Shown here: in pieces, positions 11,520 through 45,337 of the stretch
Position numbering within the stretch: the first letter of the stretch is position 1
Layout: each line of letters begins with the position of its first letter
IMG/VR virus record: IMGVR_UViG_3300018876_000008
Span: 105,338 to 169,337 of that record
Length of the DNA: 64,000 bases
Direction: 5' to 3' (one strand)
Origin: a virus
Notes under the pieces: model-generated
The model's input: the letters and a program-made list of their open reading frames with translations, nothing else
Databases searched by the model: none
What the model was told of the DNA's origin: nothing
Made by a program: the position numbers and the translations under genes

Positions 11520-12410
11520 TTATCTAAATAATGTCACATGTCCGTGAGTTTTTATCCCATAACCAGGACGAGTAGCCTCTAATTTCCAAGTATAAACACC
11601 ATCGGGACAATAATAATCTCCACTATATGGTAAAAACCAACTCAATTCGGGAAGAGGTGCCCCCGTCCAATTAGCTAAAGGATAGTCAGTTCTCCATACT
11701 AAATTGCCCCATCTATCGTAAATTTTCATATCCCACGTTAACCAACAATCAGCTTCAGTTACTACCCTAAATGATTCGTTTTTACCATCTCCGTTTGGTG
11801 TAAATGCGTTAGGAATATATAAGTCATCATCAACACATGGAACAACTGGTCCGTCATTGGATGAATTACAATCAGGGTTTGTTAGTGAGAAGGTAACTAT
11901 GTTATTTAAGGGTTCCACATCAGGATAGTCAAAGTTTCCTAAACCACTATCACTTTCGTATGGCCAAGTATTACTATCGTTTATTTGAGTTATGGAAAGA
12001 ATCCAACATTGTTCATCAAAGAATCCATCATTTATTGCCTCCTCCCAACAAAAGCTGGCGTCTGAACCGGTAACAAATGCGTCTACAATGTTAAAAGTAA
12101 CTTCATCACCTGTTTGTAACCAAGGACCTGGTGAATTAATATTGACTAAAGGAAAACTTACAGGGTAGATTAAAAGTGCCCAACCATTATCATAAAAACA
12201 CGGATATGGGTAGGTATCTAATTGTGGTTCTGTAGTTATACCTAATAAAAATTCACCGATTGAATCAGAAGGTGAACCACAATTTACTCCTGAATTCACG
12301 TATAAAGTAATATCCATGGTTTGAGGGTCAAATGACACAATTTCCATATCACATTGACCTTTCACTATGAATGAAATAAATAATAAAATTAATGTAAGTG
12401 GGTTTTTCAT
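11520..12410 (-). CDS. secreted protein with T9SS type-B C-terminal domain (gliding-motility CTD/CHU_C)
   Basis: Signal peptide-Q; C-terminal IPNAFTPNGDGKN...IYDRWG...DGVY...GHVTLFR. Confidence 0.85.
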   Translation of the reverse strand: MKNPLTLILLFISFIVKGQCDMEIVSFDPQTMDITLYVNSGVNCGSPSDSIGEFLLGITTEPQLDTYPYPCFYDNGWALLIYPVSFPLVNINSPGPWLQTGDEVTFNIVDAFVTGSDASFCWEEAINDGFFDEQCWILSITQINDSNTWPYESDSGLGNFDYPDVEPLNNIVTFSLTNPDCNSSNDGPVVPCVDDDLYIPNAFTPNGDGKNESFRVVTEADCWLTWDMKIYDRWGNLVWRTDYPLANWTGAPLPELSWFLPYSGDYYCPDGVYTWKLEATRPGYGIKTHGHVTLFR

Positions 12411-14266
12411 CTGAATATAGTTATATGTCCCCTTTCTTCAATTATCAATGCACTATTTACTTTCTTACCTGTAACTACATAAACGTATAGCCCGTCAGAA
12501 ACGTAATGATTTCCTCCATTCACACTTCCATCCCAATAAGGATAGTCGTCAAAATTATCACCAGTATTGTAATACACTTCATTTCCCCATCGGTTAAAAA
12601 TTCTAAATTCAACGTTTTCCCAACAGTTTAAATCATAGATTAGTTTCCACACATCGTTAATTCCATCATTATTTGGTGTAAAAGTATTAGGAATATGGAT
12701 AGTTGTCCAATCAGGACATATTAAACCTGGTGGGTCTTCATCACAAGGTAATCCCGTTTCACAGTCAATCCAAATTTCTTGTACAACATACTCGGTAACT
12801 GTGTCAGTTAGGTATATGTAATTATCAATAAAGACTGTATCTGTAAGATACTCTGTTATGTAAAGGGTGTCAGTTATGAATTCTGTTTCAGTTAAATAAA
12901 TCGTATCTGTAACTACTTCTGTAATATACAGTGTGTCTATAATGTATTCTGTTTCTGTAATATAGAGTGTATCTGTGACGTATTCTGTGATATATTCATA
13001 AACAGTATCTGTTACATACTCTGTTACATACTCAGTTATATATTCATAAACTGTATCCGTTAAGTAAATATAATTATCCACATACTCAATTAAAGTATCA
13101 GGTGGTGACTCAACATAAAGAGTGTCTATAATAGTATCAGTTATAAAGATAGAATCGATTTCATAGATATAAGTTACCGTTTCAATTTCAATAGTATCTG
13201 GCTCACAAACCTCAGGACAGATTAAATCTTCTAATTCATCAGGATAGTAAACGGTAGTGTTATTGTTACCCGTTACAATCTCATCATTAACATTATCAAC
13301 AGTCATTGTAAAGAAACTACCTAATGCGTCATATTCAAAGAAAGGTGAGGTGAATTGTTGACCCTCACCTACAGGAATATCATACCCACCAAACATAGAA
13401 TCATCAAAGCATTGATAGTAATCTTCATTCCATATCTCAATACAGTAATTTGTGATAGGTTCATTACCGTAATTGTAAACGGTATAAGTTATTTGATATG
13501 AGGGAATATCACCAATACACCCTATTTCAAATTCTATATTATCAATAACAGCATCAGGGGCATCGGGAGGACAATCAAAATCGGGAGAGGCTACTGCCGC
13601 ACCGGGATTCTCATCTCTACATAGGTACCAAGAATTATTACAATTTTGGTCTTGATATGTATTTGGTGCGAAATCGGGATTAGTTGACGAACTTGCCCAA
13701 CCTCCGTTTCCAACATACCAAGAAGAACCATAATTTACCTGCCACACAACAAATTCAATACACTCATCTTCAGATAACCAATAATCTATTAAGTCATCAC
13801 CACACTCGGCAAGTGGATATGGATATGTATCATAATCTCCAGGTGGGTTTAAAGGGATATTTACAACATCTCCTGTTACTAAACCGTCTCCCATTATCTC
13901 TTCCTGAAAAGTAACAGACGCTGAAGGACTGTACCACCAACCCGGATGATTATTATCGGGATTCTGACCCAAGTAGTATCCATTAGCATCCCATCCTGGA
14001 CTACATGGTGGTAATCCAAATGTTTCATTAAAATCTTCAATGACTTCATTATCGGGATTTATAGGTTCAGGAAGATGATAACCTATCTGTAATTGTGTAA
14101 CTTTACCGTTTACACCACCAGGACCGTTTGATAAACATCCTAGTGAATTAATTACCTCAATGGTGACTTCGTATGTGTTAAGGTCAACAGCGGTAATTGC
14201 GACATCACATTGTCCTTGTATAAAAAAGGCATGTAGATATGCTATAAGAAATAATAGTCTTTTCAT
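12407..14266 (-). CDS. secreted repeat protein with T9SS type-B C-terminal domain
   Basis: Signal peptide-Q; CARDB-like segment; TDTxYITE repeats; IPNTFTPNNDGIND...IFNRWG...DGLY...GHITIFR. Confidence 0.85.
   Translation of the reverse strand: MKRLLFLIAYLHAFFIQGQCDVAITAVDLNTYEVTIEVINSLGCLSNGPGGVNGKVTQLQIGYHLPEPINPDNEVIEDFNETFGLPPCSPGWDANGYYLGQNPDNNHPGWWYSPSASVTFQEEIMGDGLVTGDVVNIPLNPPGDYDTYPYPLAECGDDLIDYWLSEDECIEFVVWQVNYGSSWYVGNGGWASSSTNPDFAPNTYQDQNCNNSWYLCRDENPGAAVASPDFDCPPDAPDAVIDNIEFEIGCIGDIPSYQITYTVYNYGNEPITNYCIEIWNEDYYQCFDDSMFGGYDIPVGEGQQFTSPFFEYDALGSFFTMTVDNVNDEIVTGNNNTTVYYPDELEDLICPEVCEPDTIEIETVTYIYEIDSIFITDTIIDTLYVESPPDTLIEYVDNYIYLTDTVYEYITEYVTEYVTDTVYEYITEYVTDTLYITETEYIIDTLYITEVVTDTIYLTETEFITDTLYITEYLTDTVFIDNYIYLTDTVTEYVVQEIWIDCETGLPCDEDPPGLICPDWTTIHIPNTFTPNNDGINDVWKLIYDLNCWENVEFRIFNRWGNEVYYNTGDNFDDYPYWDGSVNGGNHYVSDGLYVYVVTGKKVNSALIIEERGHITIFR
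12790..13200 (-). repeat. intragenic degenerate tandem repeats (TDT[VLI]Y[IE]TE[YV])
   Basis: About a dozen DT-x-[YF] units in the protein; exact DNA duplication tctgttacatac x2 near 13007-13030. Confidence 0.8.
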
Positions 14267-14418
14267 TAATGGAAAGTTTAGTTGTTTTATATAAGAATCG
14301 TATGTCTAATTTTTAATTTGTAGAAGATTATAATTAAAAAGTTAGACAAGTATAACAGTGTTTCCTATAAATATATAACTAAACTTGTTAATACTATACT
14401 TTTTTAACACTAAAAAAG

Positions 14419-14706
14419 TTAAATTGTTAACATAACTAGAGCTCTATCAAAATCTGCAAACTCTTTATAGGTTTTGGCTCTACGAACGGTATTAGGGTTT
14501 ACACGAAGACGAACATGTGTAGGGTATTTTTTTTCAGACTCTTTCCTTTCTCTATTAACTTTAGAAATTGCCTCACGTTTAGTTTTTGCCCAAACATTAT
14601 TACCCCCTGTGGTTGGTTGGAAGTCTTTATTTCCCGTTGTCCCTGCGGGTGCTTCCAACCAACCAAACATATAAAGGTTCTCACCTTTTTGATTCTTGTA
14701 TGCCAT
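14419..14706 (-). CDS. hypothetical protein
   Basis: GGNNVWAKTKREA motif; in operon. Confidence 0.65.
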   Translation of the reverse strand: MAYKNQKGENLYMFGWLEAPAGTTGNKDFQPTTGGNNVWAKTKREAISKVNRERKESEKKYPTHVRLRVNPNTVRRAKTYKEFADFDRALVMLTI

Positions 14707-14714
14707 ATTACTAC

Positions 14715-14894
14715 TTAGTTTAAAATTGATTTACCCAATACCAAAGGAGATGCGTCAGGATGCGACGATACTAAAAAGCAATTATCTCTTTCAGTAATGT
14801 AAAGTGTTTTGTTTTTGAACATTTTGTAGTTGTTGTATGCGTACTCCTCAACTTTTGATTTCACTTCCGGTGCGATTGTTTCTTCTTTACCCAT
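14715..14894 (-). CDS. hypothetical protein (59 aa, not in track)
   Basis: Manual translation MGKEETIAPEV...LGKSILN*; TATATTTG promoter at 14933-14940. Confidence 0.6.
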   Translation of the reverse strand: MGKEETIAPEVKSKVEEYAYNNYKMFKNKTLYITERDNCFLVSSHPDASPLVLGKSILN

Positions 14895-14981
14895 GATTTT
14901 TAATTTTTAAATGTTTAACTGTTTTGATGATACAAATATAAGTAATAATTCTTTAAGTTTTACTAAAAATATTATTTTTTT

Positions 14982-15119
14982 TTAAATTCCTATAACAACT
15001 TCTTTATTAATCCAACCTACACATAATTCTAAATCACCATTTAGAAATCTATCGTAAGTTATTTTGATATATGGTATAATATAAATTTGAGATACTATAG
15101 TTGATATTGATATTTTCAT
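14982..15119 (-). CDS. small hypothetical protein (45 aa, not in track)
   Basis: MKISISTIVSQIYIIPYIKITYDR...VVIGI*; follows the upstream stop by 4 nt. Confidence 0.5.
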   Translation of the reverse strand: MKISISTIVSQIYIIPYIKITYDRFLNGDLELCVGWINKEVVIGI

Positions 15120-15123
15120 AATT

Positions 15124-15423
15124 TTAAAATAAAAGTGTTAAATAATAAGCTAATTTATATCCTACAAACGCCCCTATTGCGGTTGGTACGGGAAATATGA
15201 TAAATTTACCTAAACTTGTCACGTATTTAGGTCTATTAACTACTCTCCCTAAGAAAAAATAGTAAATCATATAACCTAATAGTACTAATATATCTACTCT
15301 TTCCGCAATAAAAACAACTAATATTGCCCCAAGTAGACCAAATATAAAGTTATCCAAAACAGCAGTTGTTAATTCGATTGTTGGTGTTTCTCGATACTCT
15401 TCTTGTATTTTTTTAAGACTCAT
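15124..15423 (-). CDS. membrane protein (3 TM)
   Basis: Hydrophobic segments. Confidence 0.7.
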   Translation of the reverse strand: MSLKKIQEEYRETPTIELTTAVLDNFIFGLLGAILVVFIAERVDILVLLGYMIYYFFLGRVVNRPKYVTSLGKFIIFPVPTAIGAFVGYKLAYYLTLLF

Positions 15424-15438
15424 TATAAATAAATTTTG

Positions 15439-15512
15439 AGCTTCCTGAGGGACTCGAACCCACGACCTGCTGATTACAAATCAGCTGCTCTAGCCAACTG
15501 AGCTAAGGAAGC
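15439..15512 (-). tRNA. tRNA-Thr(UGU)
   Basis: Cloverleaf; anticodon arm GCTGA-TT-TGT-AA-TCAGC; GGTTCGAGTCC. Confidence 0.95.
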
Positions 15513-15515
15513 TTT

Positions 15516-15731
15516 TTATACTAATTTCCATTTTTTGGCAGATTTGACTATCGCCTCTTCATTTGTTAAATTTGGTTCCTCTCTAATTATATCCATTGCA
15601 GTATACATTATTTGACCCTTTAATCCTTTTTTACTTGCTAAGTCTAAAACGTCAACATAATAATTAGGGTCAAATTTTGGTAGTGTACCGTCTTCTTCCA
15701 TGTCTGCAATTTTACTAAGTATATTACCCAT
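15516..15731 (-). CDS. hypothetical protein
   Basis: Start moved to 15731, after TATATTTG promoter (15754-15761). Confidence 0.6.
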   Translation of the reverse strand: MGNILSKIADMEEDGTLPKFDPNYYVDVLDLASKKGLKGQIMYTAMDIIREEPNLTNEEAIVKSAKKWKLV

Positions 15732-15862
15732 AAATGTTTTTTTTATTAGAGTACAAATATATGATAAATGCATGAAAAAACCAACATTAAGTATAAAAAA
15801 GTTACCTAATGATGGTTTTTTACTGCATAATTAAAAAAGTGAATTCTTTAACGGTTTATTGA

Positions 15863-16198
15863 TTATCCGTTAATGACGGAATTATTGTTTTCATCTAATT
15901 GTCTATAAATTTCTGATACGTGTTCGCTCATAATATTTATAGTTTTATCAACTCTACTGTCAATATGACTATAAAGTCTCTCATTCTCTTCTTTACAATT
16001 ACGGTCAATGTTATTCCCAAAATCATAAAGTTCAGAACTTCTTTTCTCCAAATCCATATGGGTATATTCCAATTCTTTTTGGAGTAGGTTTATTTCCTCT
16101 TTCAAGGACTTTGTTGTCAAATAATTCACAAACGTACCCACAACCATTAATAATACAATGACTGCACATACACCTAAAATAAATGATGTTATTTCCAT
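15863..16198 (-). CDS. membrane-anchored coiled-coil protein
   Basis: N-terminal TM followed by heptads. Confidence 0.65.
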   Translation of the reverse strand: MEITSFILGVCAVIVLLMVVGTFVNYLTTKSLKEEINLLQKELEYTHMDLEKRSSELYDFGNNIDRNCKEENERLYSHIDSRVDKTINIMSEHVSEIYRQLDENNNSVING

Positions 16199-16244
16199 AA
16201 TTTCTAATTTTTAATTTAAATTTTATGTCAAAGAACTCACCTCG

Positions 16245-16327
16245 TTGGAGAGGAGGGACTCGAACCCCCAAGGTCGAAAGACGGCAGATTTACAGTCTGC
16301 TGAGCCAACCAATTGCTCAACTCTCCA
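16245..16327 (-). tRNA. tRNA-Tyr(GUA), U1:A72 acceptor end
   Basis: GCAGA-CT-GTA-AA-TCTGC; long variable arm GTC-TTTC-GAC. Confidence 0.9.
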
Positions 16328-16332
16328 TTTAA

Positions 16333-16455
16333 TTATTTAAATTTTGATTTAATGAACAGGTAGAGACTTTCGAAGATATGATACAACAATAATCCAACCA
16401 TCCACGATACTAAACCAAATACTAATGATGCAATAATAAATCTAAATATTTCCAT
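16333..16455 (-). CDS. small membrane peptide (40 aa)
   Basis: MEIFRFIIASLVFGLVSWMVGLLLYHIF...; lies between tRNA-Ser and tRNA-Tyr. Confidence 0.5.
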   Translation of the reverse strand: MEIFRFIIASLVFGLVSWMVGLLLYHIFESLYLFIKSKFK

Positions 16456-16487
16456 GATTTTATTTTTTTTATAGTTTAAGAGTTTAG

Positions 16488-16572
16488 CGGAAGATGTAGG
16501 ATTCGAACCTACGGTACATTGCTGTACGCTGGTTTTCAAGACCAGTGCATTCGACCACTCTGCCAATCTTCC
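16488..16572 (-). tRNA. tRNA-Ser(UGA)
   Basis: CTGGT-CT-TGA-AA-ACCAG; long variable arm; G73. Confidence 0.95.
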
Positions 16573-16577
16573 GTCTG

Positions 16578-16651
16578 TGGACCTTGTAGGGCTCGAACCT
16601 ACGACCTACGCATTATGAGTGCGGTGCTCTAACCAACTGAGCTAAAAGTCC
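16578..16651 (-). tRNA. tRNA-Ile2(CAU, lysidine type; elongator Met less likely)
   Basis: CT-CAT-AA loop with CATAAT context; GGACTTTTAGCTCAGTTGGTTAGAGCA body typical of Ile2. Confidence 0.8.
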
Positions 16652-16674
16652 GTTATTCAAAAATATCTACTCCA

Positions 16675-16746
16675 CTTAGACTCCGTCTTTCGACTTGTAG
16701 GCGTGAGATTTGACGCCTCGTTGTTCGGTTGTTAAACCTATCTAAG
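16675..16746 (-). ncRNA. putative four-way-junction structured RNA
   Basis: CTTAGA/TCTAAG closing stem around GGTT-TAAC-AACC, AGGCGT-N8-ACGCCT and GTC-GAAA-GAC hairpins. Confidence 0.45.
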
Positions 16747-16749
16747 AGC

Positions 16750-16866
16750 GGGGGAGTAGGGGATTCGAACCCCCACCTCTTCTCAACAAGCCTAATCGTA
16801 TCTCGTAACTAGTATGATATTTTCGGCCTTATAGTTGGAGCGTCGTACCACTTTGACTAACTCCCC
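16750..16866 (-). ncRNA. tRNA-like RNA with expanded anticodon arm (117 nt)
   Basis: Perfect acceptor GGGGAGT/ACTCCCC, D arm GTC..TGG..GAC, T arm GGGGG-TTCGAAT-CCCCT; about 58-nt irregular hairpin in place of the anticodon arm. Confidence 0.75.
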
Positions 16867-16874
16867 GTATTTAG

Positions 16875-16948
16875 TACACCCATCAGGATTCGAACCTGAG
16901 ACCGTCTGCTTAGAAGGCAGATGCTCTATCCAGCTGAGCTATGGGTGC
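16875..16948 (-). tRNA. tRNA-Arg(UCU)
   Basis: TCTGC-CT-TCT-AA-GCAGA; A20 in D loop. Confidence 0.95.
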
Positions 16949-17020
16949 ATGTGAAAAAGATAGGGTTCTTTTTTAAAGTTACATAGTTCCAACGCGTATT
17001 GTGTAACTCCCTATCTATAG

Positions 17021-17106
17021 TACCCGGAGACGGGCTCGAACCGTCACGGACCGTTCGGTCCAACAGATTTTAAGTCTGTCGTGTCTACCAATTCCACCAT
17101 CCGGGC
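17021..17106 (-). tRNA. tRNA-Leu(UAA)
   Basis: ACAGA-CT-TAA-AA-TCTGT; long variable arm. Confidence 0.95.
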
Positions 17107-17212
17107 ATGTGGTACTAATTTATAATTTCAAATAACGTTTTTGTCTTTCAACAATGTAAATGTACGATACAAAAGATTAAGTAACAACTATTTTTTTAAA
17201 ATAATTTAATTG

Positions 17213-17286
17213 TAGGGATGGAGGGACTTGAACCCCCGACCTTGACTATATAAGAGTCCTGCTCTAACCAACTGAGCTACATCCCC
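17213..17286 (-). tRNA. tRNA-Ile(UAU)
   Basis: GACT-CT-TAT-AT-AGTC anticodon arm; full cloverleaf. Confidence 0.9.
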
Positions 17287-17339
17287 ATGTTGAAAACACC
17301 TATATTTTATGTAGAGGTGCAAAACTCGATTTGTATTGG

Positions 17340-17415
17340 TGGTGACCCCTCAGGGGTTCGAACCCTGGACCCTCACATTAAAAGTGTGATGCTCTACCAG
17401 CTGAGCTAAGAGGTC
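17340..17415 (-). tRNA. tRNA-Lys(UUU), encoded CCA
   Basis: TCACA-CT-TTT-AA-TGTGA; 3' end ACCA followed by a second CCA. Confidence 0.95.
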
Positions 17416-17450
17416 AATTTACCGAATACTGTGTCGTTACTTAATCCCGA

Positions 17451-17461
17451 TGTCAAAGAAC
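17451..17461 (-). promoter_or_regulatory. boxA-like antitermination element
   Basis: GTTCTTTGACA; identical copy at 16226-16236; variants GTTCTTTGAAA before the tmRNA and GTTATTTGAAA before tRNA-Leu. Confidence 0.6.
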
Positions 17462-17470
17462 ACTACTAAT

Positions 17471-17509
17471 ATAAAATAAGAAACCCAAACATTTCTGTTC
17501 GGGTCTCTT
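17471..17509 (-). terminator. attenuator terminator upstream of the tRNA array
   Basis: AAGAGACCCGAACA-GAAA-TGTTTGGGTTTCTT-ATTTTAT. Confidence 0.8.
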
Positions 17510-17559
17510 CTTCTTCATAGCTTTAAGTCTATTTTTATTATATCATGTTTACCGAACTT

Positions 17560-17631
17560 TTACATAATATTATAGAACCTTATTATTGATAAGCTTCTTA
17601 ATATTGATATGTATGTTTTCGATTTGTACAT
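17560..17631 (-). CDS. leader peptide of the tRNA array (MYKSKTYISILRSLSIIRFYNIM)
   Basis: 23-codon ORF between promoter and terminator; codons match the anticodons of the downstream tRNAs. Confidence 0.75.
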   Translation of the reverse strand: MYKSKTYISILRSLSIIRFYNIM

Positions 17632-17667
17632 TTTAAAATAGTCTTTTAATTGTCTGTTTGTATACTA

Positions 17668-17698
17668 CAAATATACTCCATTTATTTCTATTGTCAAA
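17668..17698 (-). promoter_or_regulatory. Bacteroidota sigma-A promoter of the tRNA operon
   Basis: TTTG-N19-TATATTTG, matching the -33/-7 consensus. Confidence 0.85.
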
Positions 17699-17699
17699 T

Positions 17700-18080
17700 T
17701 TATTTTGAGATATTTCTTCTTCTAAACCAAATTTTTGCACCAAATACTACTAATGTAATAAACACAAGACCGATAAGGAGGAAGAAACCACGATATGAAT
17801 CTGTAGGTGAAAGTTCGTAAGTTAGTAAAGTCCATCCTGAAATGTAACCAAACCACAAAGTGACCCAAATAAAATCAGGAATTCTCTTAGTTTTTTTCTC
17901 AATCTTTAAAACTCTTTCATCATGTACTACACGACTAAGTGCGTCCTGTAAATCTTTACCATATGCGGGTACGGTCTCAAATGTACCGTCTATATTTTGA
18001 ATAGTAACTTCATACTTCAACCATCCTTCAAAAGTTTCACTTTCCTTTCTAAGTTCAACTTGAACCGCCTTTCTTTTCAT
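17700..18080 (-). CDS. membrane protein
   Basis: PAYGKDLQDAL motif; two C-terminal TM helices. Confidence 0.7.
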   Translation of the reverse strand: MKRKAVQVELRKESETFEGWLKYEVTIQNIDGTFETVPAYGKDLQDALSRVVHDERVLKIEKKTKRIPDFIWVTLWFGYISGWTLLTYELSPTDSYRGFFLLIGLVFITLVVFGAKIWFRRRNISK

Positions 18081-18220
18081 AATATTATATTTTTTACTTT
18101 AACTTAATCTAAAACCTATAAACCATAAATCAACTCTAAAAAATTTATTTCCTTTATTTAATCCAAAACCAATACGTAACATACGATTTTGTTTATCTAA
18201 AATTATTTTAGTTAGTTTCA

Positions 18221-18835
18221 TTAATTTATGATTCTACCATCTTGAGTATAAATTTCTACCGTTGCTGCTTTACCCATATTATCCATCCATTCATGAATTT
18301 CTAAGAGTTGGTCTTTGAAGAAAATTCTAGAAACAAAATCCCATTCACCGTCAGGTGTGTCAATAGAACCTCCCATAACCGAGAAATCCTGTGCAACCGG
18401 AATTTGTTCTGATTCAAACATCATTTCGTAAATCCCTCCTTTTTGTTCATCAATAATGAGTAAAACATGTTCGACACCATCGTCACGATAATGAGGAGAT
18501 GCTAGAAAAGATTGGTACGGGTACATCTCGTCTACATCTCCAACATTCTCATATTCATCACCTAAGTCTTTTTCCTCAAATTCGGCAACTACATTATCAT
18601 TTTCATCTATAACTTTAAAAAAAAGTCTACCGTTATAAAATGGTGCGGACATTTGGAACATATCGGGGTCCCACATATCATCTATAATATCATCCTCCAT
18701 AAGGTGCCTAACTTCCCATAGTTCGTCACTATTATTATCTCTCATAAGGATATCCACCTTTTCTAATTGTTCATCATTTAAAGAATGTGCCACGGATTCC
18801 ATAGACCATCCATAAACTTCCAACTTGTACTTCAT
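18221..18835 (-). CDS. hypothetical acidic protein
   Basis: 204-aa ORF. Confidence 0.7.
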   Translation of the reverse strand: MKYKLEVYGWSMESVAHSLNDEQLEKVDILMRDNNSDELWEVRHLMEDDIIDDMWDPDMFQMSAPFYNGRLFFKVIDENDNVVAEFEEKDLGDEYENVGDVDEMYPYQSFLASPHYRDDGVEHVLLIIDEQKGGIYEMMFESEQIPVAQDFSVMGGSIDTPDGEWDFVSRIFFKDQLLEIHEWMDNMGKAATVEIYTQDGRIIN

Positions 18836-18847
18836 TTTGATTTACTG

Positions 18848-19540
18848 TTAATTTAAAAATTTAATTTGATTTGTATTTGGGTCCCAATCCACTGTTAAGG
18901 GTTTGTTTTTAAAAATATAATCTTCACCCAATACTGAAGCGTTAATGTAATGGGTTCCATTATCGAACTTATAACCGTATCCGCTATGAATATGGCCAAA
19001 AACGTGTATCTTAGGTTTAACGACCTTTAAACGTTCTGCCAATAGTTCACAACCAAGATTATCATATCGACCTACTACAGTATCTAAACATCCTTTAGGG
19101 GGTCCATGAGTGATAAGAATATCAATATCATTAGGTATGATACTCCATTTATGTTTTAATTCTTCACTGTTACGTGGTAGATTAAAAGCCCAATTGTAGA
19201 ACTCAGGTTGCCATGGAGTTCCCCATACTTTTACTGATGACTGATAATCGTCCCCAATAATTTGTAAGTCATCTTCAAGATAACTTACATTAAGGTAATT
19301 AGAAACAATTTCTTTAGCCAATTTAGGGTTATCCTCAAACATAAGGTCATGATTACCTGCAATAACAATTTTATTTGTGTAATTCTCTAAATCATTAAAC
19401 CAATCCATAAAACCATCAACCTCATGTTCATAACCTCGTGAAGTAAAATCACCCGCATGGATTAGTAAATCACCACCTGGTAATTGAGATGTCACTTGAC
19501 GATGTTTCGTGTGTGTATCGGATATGAATGTGATTTTCAT
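18848..19540 (-). CDS. calcineurin-like metallophosphoesterase (MPPED-like)
   Basis: ISDTH, HAGD, AGNHD, LITHGPP, FGHIH. Confidence 0.9.
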   Translation of the reverse strand: MKITFISDTHTKHRQVTSQLPGGDLLIHAGDFTSRGYEHEVDGFMDWFNDLENYTNKIVIAGNHDLMFEDNPKLAKEIVSNYLNVSYLEDDLQIIGDDYQSSVKVWGTPWQPEFYNWAFNLPRNSEELKHKWSIIPNDIDILITHGPPKGCLDTVVGRYDNLGCELLAERLKVVKPKIHVFGHIHSGYGYKFDNGTHYINASVLGEDYIFKNKPLTVDWDPNTNQIKFLN

Positions 19541-19577
19541 TTTATTTCTTTTGGCTAATATAAACATAGAATTTTAA

Positions 19578-20177
19578 TTAATAAAACTTTTCTTTTAATT
19601 TTTGTTTTTTCACCATAGATTTTAAAAGGTTAACATAATTATCCGCTTCAGCATATGATTTATCTAAGTATATATAATATTCTTCTTCAGTTTTTATTGT
19701 GGAAAGATACCTACATTGATAAAAGGCGTAGTCGTAGACAGATTCTCTCCAGTGAACATAAAATGCGTGATTATATTGTGTTCCTTTTGATGTGTGTACT
19801 CTAACTTTAGCTTCTTTCATACCGAATAGATTGTGGTTCTCTAAAAAGATTTTAGACTTATAGTGTCCACTCTCCAACTGAGCTTGGGCTAAAACAATAT
19901 GAGGAAATTTAACGTTTAGGGATTTTAATAATAAAATTAATTTTTCTTCAGAAAAATCATTTAGAGTGTCTTTAACATTAAGGACAACAATATCAGATTC
20001 TATATTATCTAAATTGTTTAAGTTGGTAGGTGTACTACATTTATTATTAGTTAAAAAATATACAGATAACAAGAATAATATACTTAATATTGGTATTAAA
20101 AATTTAAATGTATTAATTTTTTTGAATTGTAATGTTTTACTACAATAATAGTATAATTCTTTTTTATTTAATTTCAT
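19578..20177 (-). CDS. glucosaminidase-domain (FlgJ/Bax-like) cell-wall hydrolase
   Basis: IVLAQAQLESG...NNLFG-like NHNLFGMK...YAE; TM anchor. Confidence 0.75.
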   Translation of the reverse strand: MKLNKKELYYYCSKTLQFKKINTFKFLIPILSILFLLSVYFLTNNKCSTPTNLNNLDNIESDIVVLNVKDTLNDFSEEKLILLLKSLNVKFPHIVLAQAQLESGHYKSKIFLENHNLFGMKEAKVRVHTSKGTQYNHAFYVHWRESVYDYAFYQCRYLSTIKTEEEYYIYLDKSYAEADNYVNLLKSMVKKQKLKEKFY

Positions 20178-20243
20178 ATTTTTAGCTCATTAATTTTAAA
20201 AATAAGGCCCATTTAAATTAATAAATGAGCCGTAATGTTTAAT

Positions 20244-20636
20244 TTAAAGACCCATTTCTTTACGAATCTTAGTTGCCGAGATATCTCCGATATCAGAAGG
20301 TGGGGTATGTTCAATAATATCATATCCAACACCTCTTCCAAACTCTATTGAACAAATATCAGGTATAATTGTTACTGCTATTTTACCTGACTCAACTTCA
20401 GTTTCATAATGGTTGATAATATTCTCCTTAACTTCTGAAGCGGTAAACGGATTCTTTTCATTGGGTTTACCGTCCCTAATACAAATTAAGACATTCTTAC
20501 CTTTATCCAAAGCTTGTTTGAATAACTCTTGATGGCCTTTGTGTAAAGGTTGCCATCGACCTACAAACATCGCGTACTGACCTTCTCTAGCCGGCATCGA
20601 TGACTCTACATGAAATTTACTATTCCATTCACTCAT
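20244..20636 (-). CDS. cytidylyltransferase-like nucleotidyltransferase
   Basis: GRWQPLHKGH (HxGH); ISATKIR. Confidence 0.85.
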   Translation of the reverse strand: MSEWNSKFHVESSMPAREGQYAMFVGRWQPLHKGHQELFKQALDKGKNVLICIRDGKPNEKNPFTASEVKENIINHYETEVESGKIAVTIIPDICSIEFGRGVGYDIIEHTPPSDIGDISATKIRKEMGL

Positions 20637-20645
20637 AATTTATAA

Positions 20646-21017
20646 TTAAAAATATTTAGACCAATCGATACTTTTAAAACCCTCGTCCCTATTAAGGTTT
20701 ACTCCAAAAGCTCTTTGACCTGGTTTATTAGGGTCCATATCATTTATTAATATTCTAGGACCTCTCTCGATTCCTGTGATTAGACGGTCATATACAATTC
20801 CATTTTCTTTTAGTTCTTTAACCGTATGGTCATGGAGATAATCAGGTCTTGCAGTTGTTAATATAACCATATGACCTTCTTTACTCCATAACTCTAACCT
20901 TTCTTTAACCTCAGGTAAGACCTCAACAGATGAGGTTTCATACGTTTCAAACTTTCTATATTTAAATAGTGTACCGTCAATATCACAGAATATTGTTGAT
21001 TTTTTTTCTACCATCAA
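20646..21017 (-). CDS. HAD-superfamily phosphatase
   Basis: FCDIDGTL, LTTAR, LINDM. Confidence 0.8.
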   Translation of the reverse strand: MMVEKKSTIFCDIDGTLFKYRKFETYETSSVEVLPEVKERLELWSKEGHMVILTTARPDYLHDHTVKELKENGIVYDRLITGIERGPRILINDMDPNKPGQRAFGVNLNRDEGFKSIDWSKYF

Positions 21018-44868: not shown

Positions 44869-45252
44869 TGGTGGAGGTGGCGGGATTCGAACCCGCGTCT
44901 TGCTCGTATTACCCTATAAAGGACTACACGTTTAGGACAATATTGATTCTCAATATTCCGAAATATGTGATTGAATTTTTACATCCTCCATCACCAATAG
45001 ATGTACGACTCGATTTAAGGTTCGGTCGTTTTTCCACCTTTGTAAGACTTCTGTTCCTAGGTTATATGTCCCGACCCGTTGTGGTGTAACGTCTTACGCT
45101 ACAGCCACTTCTTCAGTACGAACAAGTCCGATAGCCTGAAGTTTTGCGATAGTTTCGCCAGATAAAAATTGCGTCCATAGATTTAAGTGATAGGATACAT
45201 CTCACTACGTGCCCCGTATAACTAATTCCGCCAATCAATTCCATTCACCCCC
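44869..45252 (-). ncRNA. ssrA: tmRNA
   Basis: GGGGGTG/CACCTCC acceptor with G3:U70, T arm GCGGGTTCGAATCCCGC, encoded ACCA; tag ORF 45159-45094 GETIAKLQAIGLVRTEEVAVA*; promoter TATATTTG at 45282. Confidence 0.92.
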
Positions 45253-45337
45253 ATATTTTCAAAGAACTTACTTTATAGGTACAAATATAAATACTTTTTT
45301 TCTTATAAGAAACTATTTATAGTAAAAATACACGGAA

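Follow-up and report, generated by a model that had tools for sequence, protein, structure and literature searches.

An eight-tRNA array of a phage is probably gated by an upstream leader-peptide attenuator

Ribosome-mediated attenuation is a known mechanism and its enterobacterial examples include multivalent attenuators such as the thr leader, with Thr and Ile codons, and the ilvGMEDA leader, with Ile, Leu and Val codons, as well as trpL, hisL, leuL and pheL. A component of the decoding apparatus is controlled in this way by the pheST attenuator of E. coli, in which the codons for a single amino acid in the pheM leader control Phe-tRNA synthetase by reading the supply of charged tRNA. The T-box, found mainly in Firmicutes, carries a specifier loop and a T-box sequence and binds uncharged tRNA directly, with no ribosome involved. 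In most accounts phage tRNA genes are treated as constitutive cargo, there to make up for a codon-usage mismatch or to replace tRNAs destroyed by host defences, and little has been described of how their expression is controlled. A full-text literature search returned no paper on leader-peptide attenuation of tRNA genes, phage or cellular, and it is the application to tRNA genes, rather than the mechanism itself, that would be new here.

Here we analysed the last 64 kb (64,000 nucleotides, referred to as the window) of a 169,337-base virus record with a G+C content of 32%. On the minus strand the window contains in order a promoter (P1), a short leader ORF, the motif GTTCGG, an intrinsic terminator, a boxA-like site and a tRNA array (Table 1). 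An earlier note on this DNA had proposed that this arrangement is an attenuator, naming a Bacteroidota promoter, the leader ORF, GTTCGG 2 nt past its stop codon, a 14-bp GAAA-capped terminator with CCGAAC in its 5' arm, a boxA and eight tRNA genes, and each of these elements was located at the stated coordinates on re-analysis, with all eight tRNAs carrying the anticodons proposed for them. The eight are the sole tRNA genes in the phage genome. The description of the array was nevertheless incomplete, as a ninth, tRNA-like RNA had not been listed. The promoter type, together with a C-terminal CHU_C type IX secretion sorting domain (Pfam E 2.5e-16) on a 619-residue phage protein, suggests a host of the Bacteroidota type.

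Table 1. Features of the leader, the tRNA array and other elements in the window, with positions counted from the first base of the window
Feature	Position	Strand	Basis or remark
Promoter P1, Bacteroidota type	17668-17698	-	TTTG, N19, TATATTTG
Leader ORF, 23 codons + TAA	17560-17631	-	behind consensus P1
Region 1 (AUCGAA, codons 3-5)	17618-17623	-	minimum-energy folds
Hairpin A inside ORF, candidate pause or protector hairpin	17561-17613	-	fold
Region 2 (GUUCGG), 5' half of antiterminator	17552-17557	-	invariant in 12/12 aligned variants
Region 3 (CCGAAC), common to antiterminator and terminator 5' arm	17497-17502	-	sequence and fold
Intrinsic terminator, 14-pair stem (17509-17478), GAAA loop, T-rich tail	17471-17509	-	predicted
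boxA-like site GTTCTTTGACA	17451-17461	-	invariant in relatives
boxA-like 11-mer sites	17451-17461, 17126-17136, 16226-16236, 45257-45267	all -	fifth site 32 kb before window
tRNA array: Lys(UUU), Ile(UAU), Leu(UAA), Arg(UCU), tRNA-like RNA, CAU, Ser(UGA), Tyr(GUA), two small ORFs, Thr(UGU)	15438-17415	-	Rfam/ARAGORN
tRNA-Ile(UAU) and a CAU tRNA (Met or lysidine-type Ile2)	16577-16651, 17212-17286	-
117-base tRNA-like RNA within array	16750-16866	-	38 bits on Rfam tRNA model
9-mer TTCGGTAAA, two copies	17548-17556 (region 2), 17417-17425 (directly before tRNA-Lys)	-	conserved in clade A alone
619-residue protein with CHU_C domain	12407-14266	-	Pfam
tmRNA	44869-45252	-	Rfam, 77.7 bits

Like the amino-acid attenuators, this locus has a short leader ORF rich in regulatory codons, predicted to be translated and lying behind a promoter; its codons are linked to the products of the operon and an intrinsic terminator precedes the genes that would be regulated. 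An upstream segment is predicted to compete for the 5' arm of the terminator and to be masked by a ribosome at the stop codon, a candidate protector or pause hairpin is present, and several kinds of codon could act as triggers. In contrast to the biosynthetic enzymes of those systems the regulated genes here are tRNA genes, so that the sensed molecules would be the operon's own products. There would be seven inputs here and up to around 16 in relatives, mostly with one or two codons each, and the setting differs in being phage-encoded and of Bacteroidota type, with a boxA after the terminator and leader codons that track the gain and loss of cargo. The likeness to pheST lies in the leader-peptide attenuation of a decoding-apparatus component, although pheST is cellular and has a single input and a synthetase as its target whereas the present element would be viral and multi-input and act on tRNA genes. 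With the T-box it would share the principle that the state of a specific tRNA decides read-through of a terminator before genes of the translation apparatus, by competition between antiterminator and terminator. Rfam searches gave matches to tRNA and tmRNA only, with no match to the T-box or any other cis-regulatory family even at E values up to 1, and the element is not a T-box.

The array can decode 18 of the 22 internal leader codons, and all seven anticodons other than CAU are sampled. A recount of codons 2-18 agreed with the earlier tally of 14 exact cognates, two wobble partners (TCG and AGG) and a single uncovered codon (AGC), and all seven amino acids of the array were seen within codons 2-12, early in the leader as had been claimed. 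ATA occurs four times and AAA, TAC, TCA and TTA twice each. Classical attenuators have runs of regulatory codons whereas most codons of this leader are present once or twice, and a low sensitivity per input would therefore be expected.

A match of this kind could in principle arise by chance from composition, since an A+T-rich genome (here 31-32% G+C) may hold spurious ORFs that are naturally rich in the A-ending codons which phage tRNAs serve, a caveat that had been raised at the outset, and the seven exact-cognate codons do make up 22.8% of the codons in the long ORFs of this phage. Against gene codon usage, however, 14 cognates among 17 codons have a binomial P of 3e-7 (5e-5 for 14 among all 22 internal codons), a strong enrichment in the test that the earlier note had proposed. 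Nulls drawn from the same genome agree: the leader ranks first among the 517 short ORFs of the window and first among the 1135 of the whole phage genome, 14/17 cognates were reached in 3 of 45,623 stop-free windows in the window null, and genome-wide only 12 of 101,228 stop-free windows of 22 codons sampled all seven anticodons with at least 18 codons covered. None of 400,000 random ORFs generated from phage codon usage combined 18/22 covered codons with 7/7 sampled anticodons (joint P < 2.5e-6), and the leaders of related clades B and C give similar values against phage codon usage. As the ORF is also conserved and open in all clades, and the rare Trp, Cys and His codons appear in the leaders of relatives exactly when those tRNAs are present, we reject chance or composition as the cause of the codon match and regard it as very improbable.

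The first relatives of the locus were reached through neighbouring proteins, as IMG/VR contigs with 65-71% protein identity which share the layout of promoter, leader, terminator, boxA and tRNA-Lys. Metagenome contigs were also scanned with the terminator sequence, giving 63 loci of which 46 have the phage layout; conservation of the terminator itself is therefore partly by construction. In the other 18 the same hairpin acts as a plain terminator, in most cases behind a bacterial 5S rRNA or tRNA-Phe gene. The identical 23-base hairpin was seen in such ordinary use, following bacterial 5S rRNA and tRNA-Phe(GAA) genes with Bacteroidota-type promoters, at L020, L022, L024, L037, L048, L053, L055, L062, L067, L072 and L075, and its presence in phages and bacteria reflects either convergence or a borrowed host terminator. 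An upstream copy corresponding to region 2 is present in 46/46 phage leaders as compared with 0/18 of the unrelated uses of the same terminator, and no GTDB species genome places region 2 before this terminator. A blind detector, requiring a short ORF, an upstream copy of a terminator arm and a terminator, called the present site alone in the whole phage genome and, across all fetched loci, only the two leader families and one spurious match. Among GenBank phages there was no relative of either leader, with tRNA matches only, and a scan with a pattern internal to the ORF, independent of the terminator, gave one spurious coding match only.

The phage loci fall into three clades, A (the window, A2 and A3), B and C. 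The leader ORF is open in 52/52 loci with complete upstream sequence, at lengths of 23-29 codons and in 15 distinct versions with a mean column identity of 71%. Indels that separate B leaders from those of C, or from one another, have lengths divisible by three, and 12 of the 20 sites that vary within clades are third codon positions (P 0.013). Exceptions to the codon match include a 13-base deletion that shifts the leader frame in A3 and a missing ORF start at L043, a single low-coverage contig. Of 20 differences between the window leader and that of A2, 19 alter the amino acid, so it is not the peptide as such that is conserved.

Our comparison of the leaders with their arrays shows that the codons follow the cargo. 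Where a relative has 15-17 tRNAs, including those for Trp, Cys, His and Gln, the corresponding codons are present in its leader. Clade B and C arrays comprise Ile(GAU), Arg(ACG), Trp, Phe, Ser(GCU), Lys, Leu(UAG), Val, His, Cys, Gln, Leu(UAA), Arg(UCU), Ser(UGA), Tyr and Asn tRNAs (two clade B type IMG/VR contigs end inside the array), and their leaders hold a codon for each listed tRNA, among them the rare Trp, Cys and His codons; the two Arg tRNAs each have a codon of their own, as do the two Ser and the two Leu tRNAs, and Ala, Asp, Glu and Pro codons are missing. Where the clade C array is without Ser and Leu(UAA) tRNAs, on which Rfam and ARAGORN agree, the leader is without AGC, internal TCA and TTA, and ATA occurs in the clade C leader together with tRNA-Ile(UAU). 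The window array has gained Tyr and Ser tRNAs relative to its sister clade A2, and Tyr codons number three in its leader as compared with none in that of A2, and UCN codons three as compared with one; these codons stand where A2 has Asn, His and CGA. A2 is itself an exception, as its leaders retain those Asn, His and CGA codons although none of the clade A arrays has a tRNA for them.

When five leaders were scored against the arrays over 24 anticodon types, each leader correlated best with its own array and the true assignment ranked first of 120. A decodable codon was found in the own leader for 47 of 49 array tRNAs as compared with 23 of 71 absent tRNAs (Fisher 2e-13, without correction for relatedness), and both array tRNAs that have no such codon are U34 tRNAs serving four-codon boxes. 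Some parallels in order were also observed. The clade B leaders (L030, L063) contain the run Arg-Trp-Phe-Ser and their arrays start Ile, Arg, Trp, Phe, Ser, and the clade A leader core Lys ... Ile-Ile-Leu-Arg parallels the array order Lys, Ile, Leu, Arg.

Three relatives (L027, L028 and L079) carry a second tRNA cluster 2 kb beyond the first, with Glu, Thr, Met, Gly, Asp, Ala and Pro tRNAs. This cluster is preceded by its own 22-codon ORF, which is rich in the Ala, Pro, Thr, Glu, Gly and Asp codons that are missing from leader 1, and a comparison of the two leaders with the two clusters gives 24/2 against 8/10 (Fisher 0.0012). One exception is leader 2 of L079, which has no Ala codon despite a tRNA-Ala. 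Leader 2 is unrelated to leader 1 in sequence and yet arranged in the same way: its final codons, GAGGTGGG, are complementary to CCCACCTC, which lies in the 5' arm of its own terminator around 30 bases downstream. The eight pairs extend one beyond the stem of the terminator itself, which argues for selection on the pairing of region 2 with region 3 and against mere duplication.

The full promoter motif is matched 19 times in the 169-kb genome, where composition would lead one to expect 4.7, and a consensus P1 precedes every homologous leader. Between the terminator and tRNA-Lys of the window there is no consensus promoter, the box there being TATATTAG, so P1-driven expression of the array must cross the terminator. 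A nearer promoter for tRNA-Thr (15754) had also been claimed but we found no consensus match on the minus strand near that position. In clades B and C a TAnnTTTG box lies directly 3' of the terminator and is kept even though its two free positions vary, and in cluster 2 of the relatives a full consensus promoter lies between terminator 2 and the tRNAs; the arrays may thus also be expressed in a way that bypasses the attenuator.

These downstream elements would suit a different account of the locus in which the small ORF, with a promoter and terminator to itself, is a mini-gene or small RNA independent of the array, the array is served by a separate promoter, the same terminator also closes the upstream operon and the codon match carries no regulatory meaning. 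The leaderless relative L005, with plain promoter-boxA-tmRNA and promoter-boxA-tRNA units, fits this account and indicates that the basic unit functions without a leader. We nevertheless consider it quite unlikely, as it leaves unexplained the co-variation of codons and cargo, the match of leader 2 to cluster 2 and the upstream copy of region 2, and as the window has no consensus promoter after its terminator and lone -7 boxes occur in this genome at chance frequency (264 found against 249 expected). If instead the leader is an attenuator, it would probably add a regulated stream from the strong P1 on top of a basal stream from the second promoter.

The boxA-like 11-mer GTT[CA]TTTGA[CA]A has five sites in the 169-kb genome, every one of them adjoining a non-coding RNA gene, with the tRNA array, the tmRNA and a putative large non-coding RNA (so called in the earlier note) as neighbours. 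It resembles the boxA of rRNA operons in sequence and in its position near the start of non-coding RNA operons, which makes it a candidate NusB/NusE site. The site at the array differs from the rRNA type in lying downstream of the regulated terminator, and so cannot be what overrides that terminator; more likely it keeps transcription through the array processive after polymerase has passed the attenuator.

The terminator is the best terminator-like site within 14000-21000. In relatives its pairs survive through one-sided changes and the stem of clade A is lengthened. Region 2 is non-coding in the window and coding in clades B and C, yet invariant. With region 4, the partner of region 3 in the terminator, left out, the pairing of regions 2 and 3 is the minimum-energy fold in 5/5 representatives, at -5.5 (window), -6.9, -8.5, -15.4 and -15.4 kcal/mol as compared with -20 to -24 kcal/mol for the terminator alternative. 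The caution that the antiterminator is only 6 bp holds for the window, where these six pairs enclose a loop of around 50 bases and their -5.5 kcal/mol stand against -21.9 kcal/mol for the terminator; in clades B and C there are 7-8 pairs, at -15.4 against about -20 kcal/mol. In equilibrium folds of the full leader, including those with masked ribosome footprints, the terminator wins every time and the states are not separable, so that the switch must be kinetic, as control of the trp attenuator likewise is. Folding gives the alternative structures that the model expects, though as a kinetic switch only, and one that is weak in the window.

The ribosome-free fold pairs region 1 with region 2, enclosing the entire sensor ORF, with the terminator also formed. 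Clades B and C have an equivalent of region 1, CCGAA or CCGAG, whereas A2 has a weaker one and A3 none. The outer helix of regions 1 and 2 around hairpin A is part of the minimum-energy folds of the window, B and C, is weak in A2 and is missing from A3. The whole-leader fold has a z-score of -4.4, and for clades B and C RNAalifold predicts hairpin A with 16 pairs, two of them with compensatory changes, and the antiterminator as well. It had been suggested that relatives be examined for a conserved leader, codon content that follows tRNA content and compensatory changes in the GTTCGG/CCGAAC pairing; the first two are seen, but regions 2 and 3 are both invariant within the leader 1 family and show no compensatory change.

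Two further observations concern this stretch. The 9-mer TTCGGTAAA occurs a second time before tRNA-Lys, and this second copy could pair with CCGAA. We also considered whether a second ORF (17518-17453), running across the terminator, is conserved, and rejected this because a 1-base deletion in a relative shifts its frame.

The weakness of the window antiterminator bears on a further alternative, in which the leader is translated and senses the array codons but has an output other than simple antitermination by regions 2 and 3, candidates being a terminated leader RNA or a peptide acting in trans, a change in how the precursor is processed or how stable it is, or an influence on a promoter overlapping the terminator. 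The -7 box or full promoter 3' of the terminator in relatives would be in keeping with such an output, as would the fairly conserved N-terminal part of the peptide across A2, A3, B and C and the conservation of non-coding stretches after region 2, CATGAT among them. On the other hand two unrelated leader families both retain an upstream copy of the terminator 3' arm, the copy in leader 2 outreaches the terminator stem as competition for region 3 would predict, and the peptide is not kept between the window and A2. We regard this alternative as unlikely.

Codon enrichment, co-variation with cargo, an unrelated leader 2 with the same layout and the upstream copy in 46/46 phage leaders against 0/18 other uses all support the attenuator reading put forward in the earlier note, and we judge it likely that the leader is a ribosome-mediated leader-peptide attenuator acting as a multi-input OR gate on the tRNA array. 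The sequences themselves show the layout, a statistically supported codon match, leader codons that co-vary with the cargo and a geometry that recurs; that the ORF is translated, that ribosomes stall within it and that read-through responds we infer. Under this model transcription would start at P1 and a ribosome would translate the 23-codon ORF, nearly all of whose codons are read by the array. With quick decoding throughout, the ribosome would reach the stop codon and cover region 2, leaving region 3 to pair with region 4 and form the 14-pair terminator, and the transcript would end before the tRNAs. Were any cognate tRNA scarce, uncharged or cleaved, the ribosome would stall in the ORF with region 2 free to pair with the emerging region 3; the terminator would not be nucleated and RNA polymerase would pass the boxA into the array. 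Fresh tRNAs would then speed decoding and close the loop as demand-driven negative feedback. With no ribosome, pairing of region 1 with region 2 around hairpin A would let the terminator form.

Beyond this mechanism we lean, with confidence somewhat above even, towards a self-tuning OR gate in which the leader encodes a test peptide with about one codon per cargo tRNA, the array being switched on when any of these codons is decoded slowly, through codon-usage mismatch, starvation or host anticodon nucleases, and switched off once supply is restored. The leader would be rewritten at each gain or loss of a tRNA and separate clusters would have separate sensors. If this is true, the phage gauges decoding speed directly and makes tRNAs on demand, and classical attenuation logic is widened from amino-acid supply to the tRNA pool, with many inputs per leader. 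The leader would then predict which tRNAs share a transcription unit, an easily testable sequence signature, and the codons that a phage expects to be limiting in its host would be readable from sequence alone. Such a leader would also be a natural, compact, multi-input sensor of translation stress.

A number of features of the phage RNAs were observed in addition. The window array includes both tRNA-Ile(UAU) and a CAU tRNA which may be Met or lysidine-type Ile2, and ATA is the commonest leader codon. The tRNA-like RNA within the array was missed by ARAGORN; it has acceptor and T arms and a long insert in place of the anticodon arm. Other odd tRNA-like RNAs occur in a relative (L027:2193-2302 and L027:2581-2681), and a 95-base tRNA whose D loop has an inserted hairpin is found at L063:4617-4711, L030:719-813 and L079:8612-8706. 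The phage also encodes a tmRNA, for which ARAGORN made no call in the window, and the tmRNA of relative L005 has a 24-residue tag. A ribosome-rescue RNA is thus carried by the same phage that appears to read ribosome stalling.
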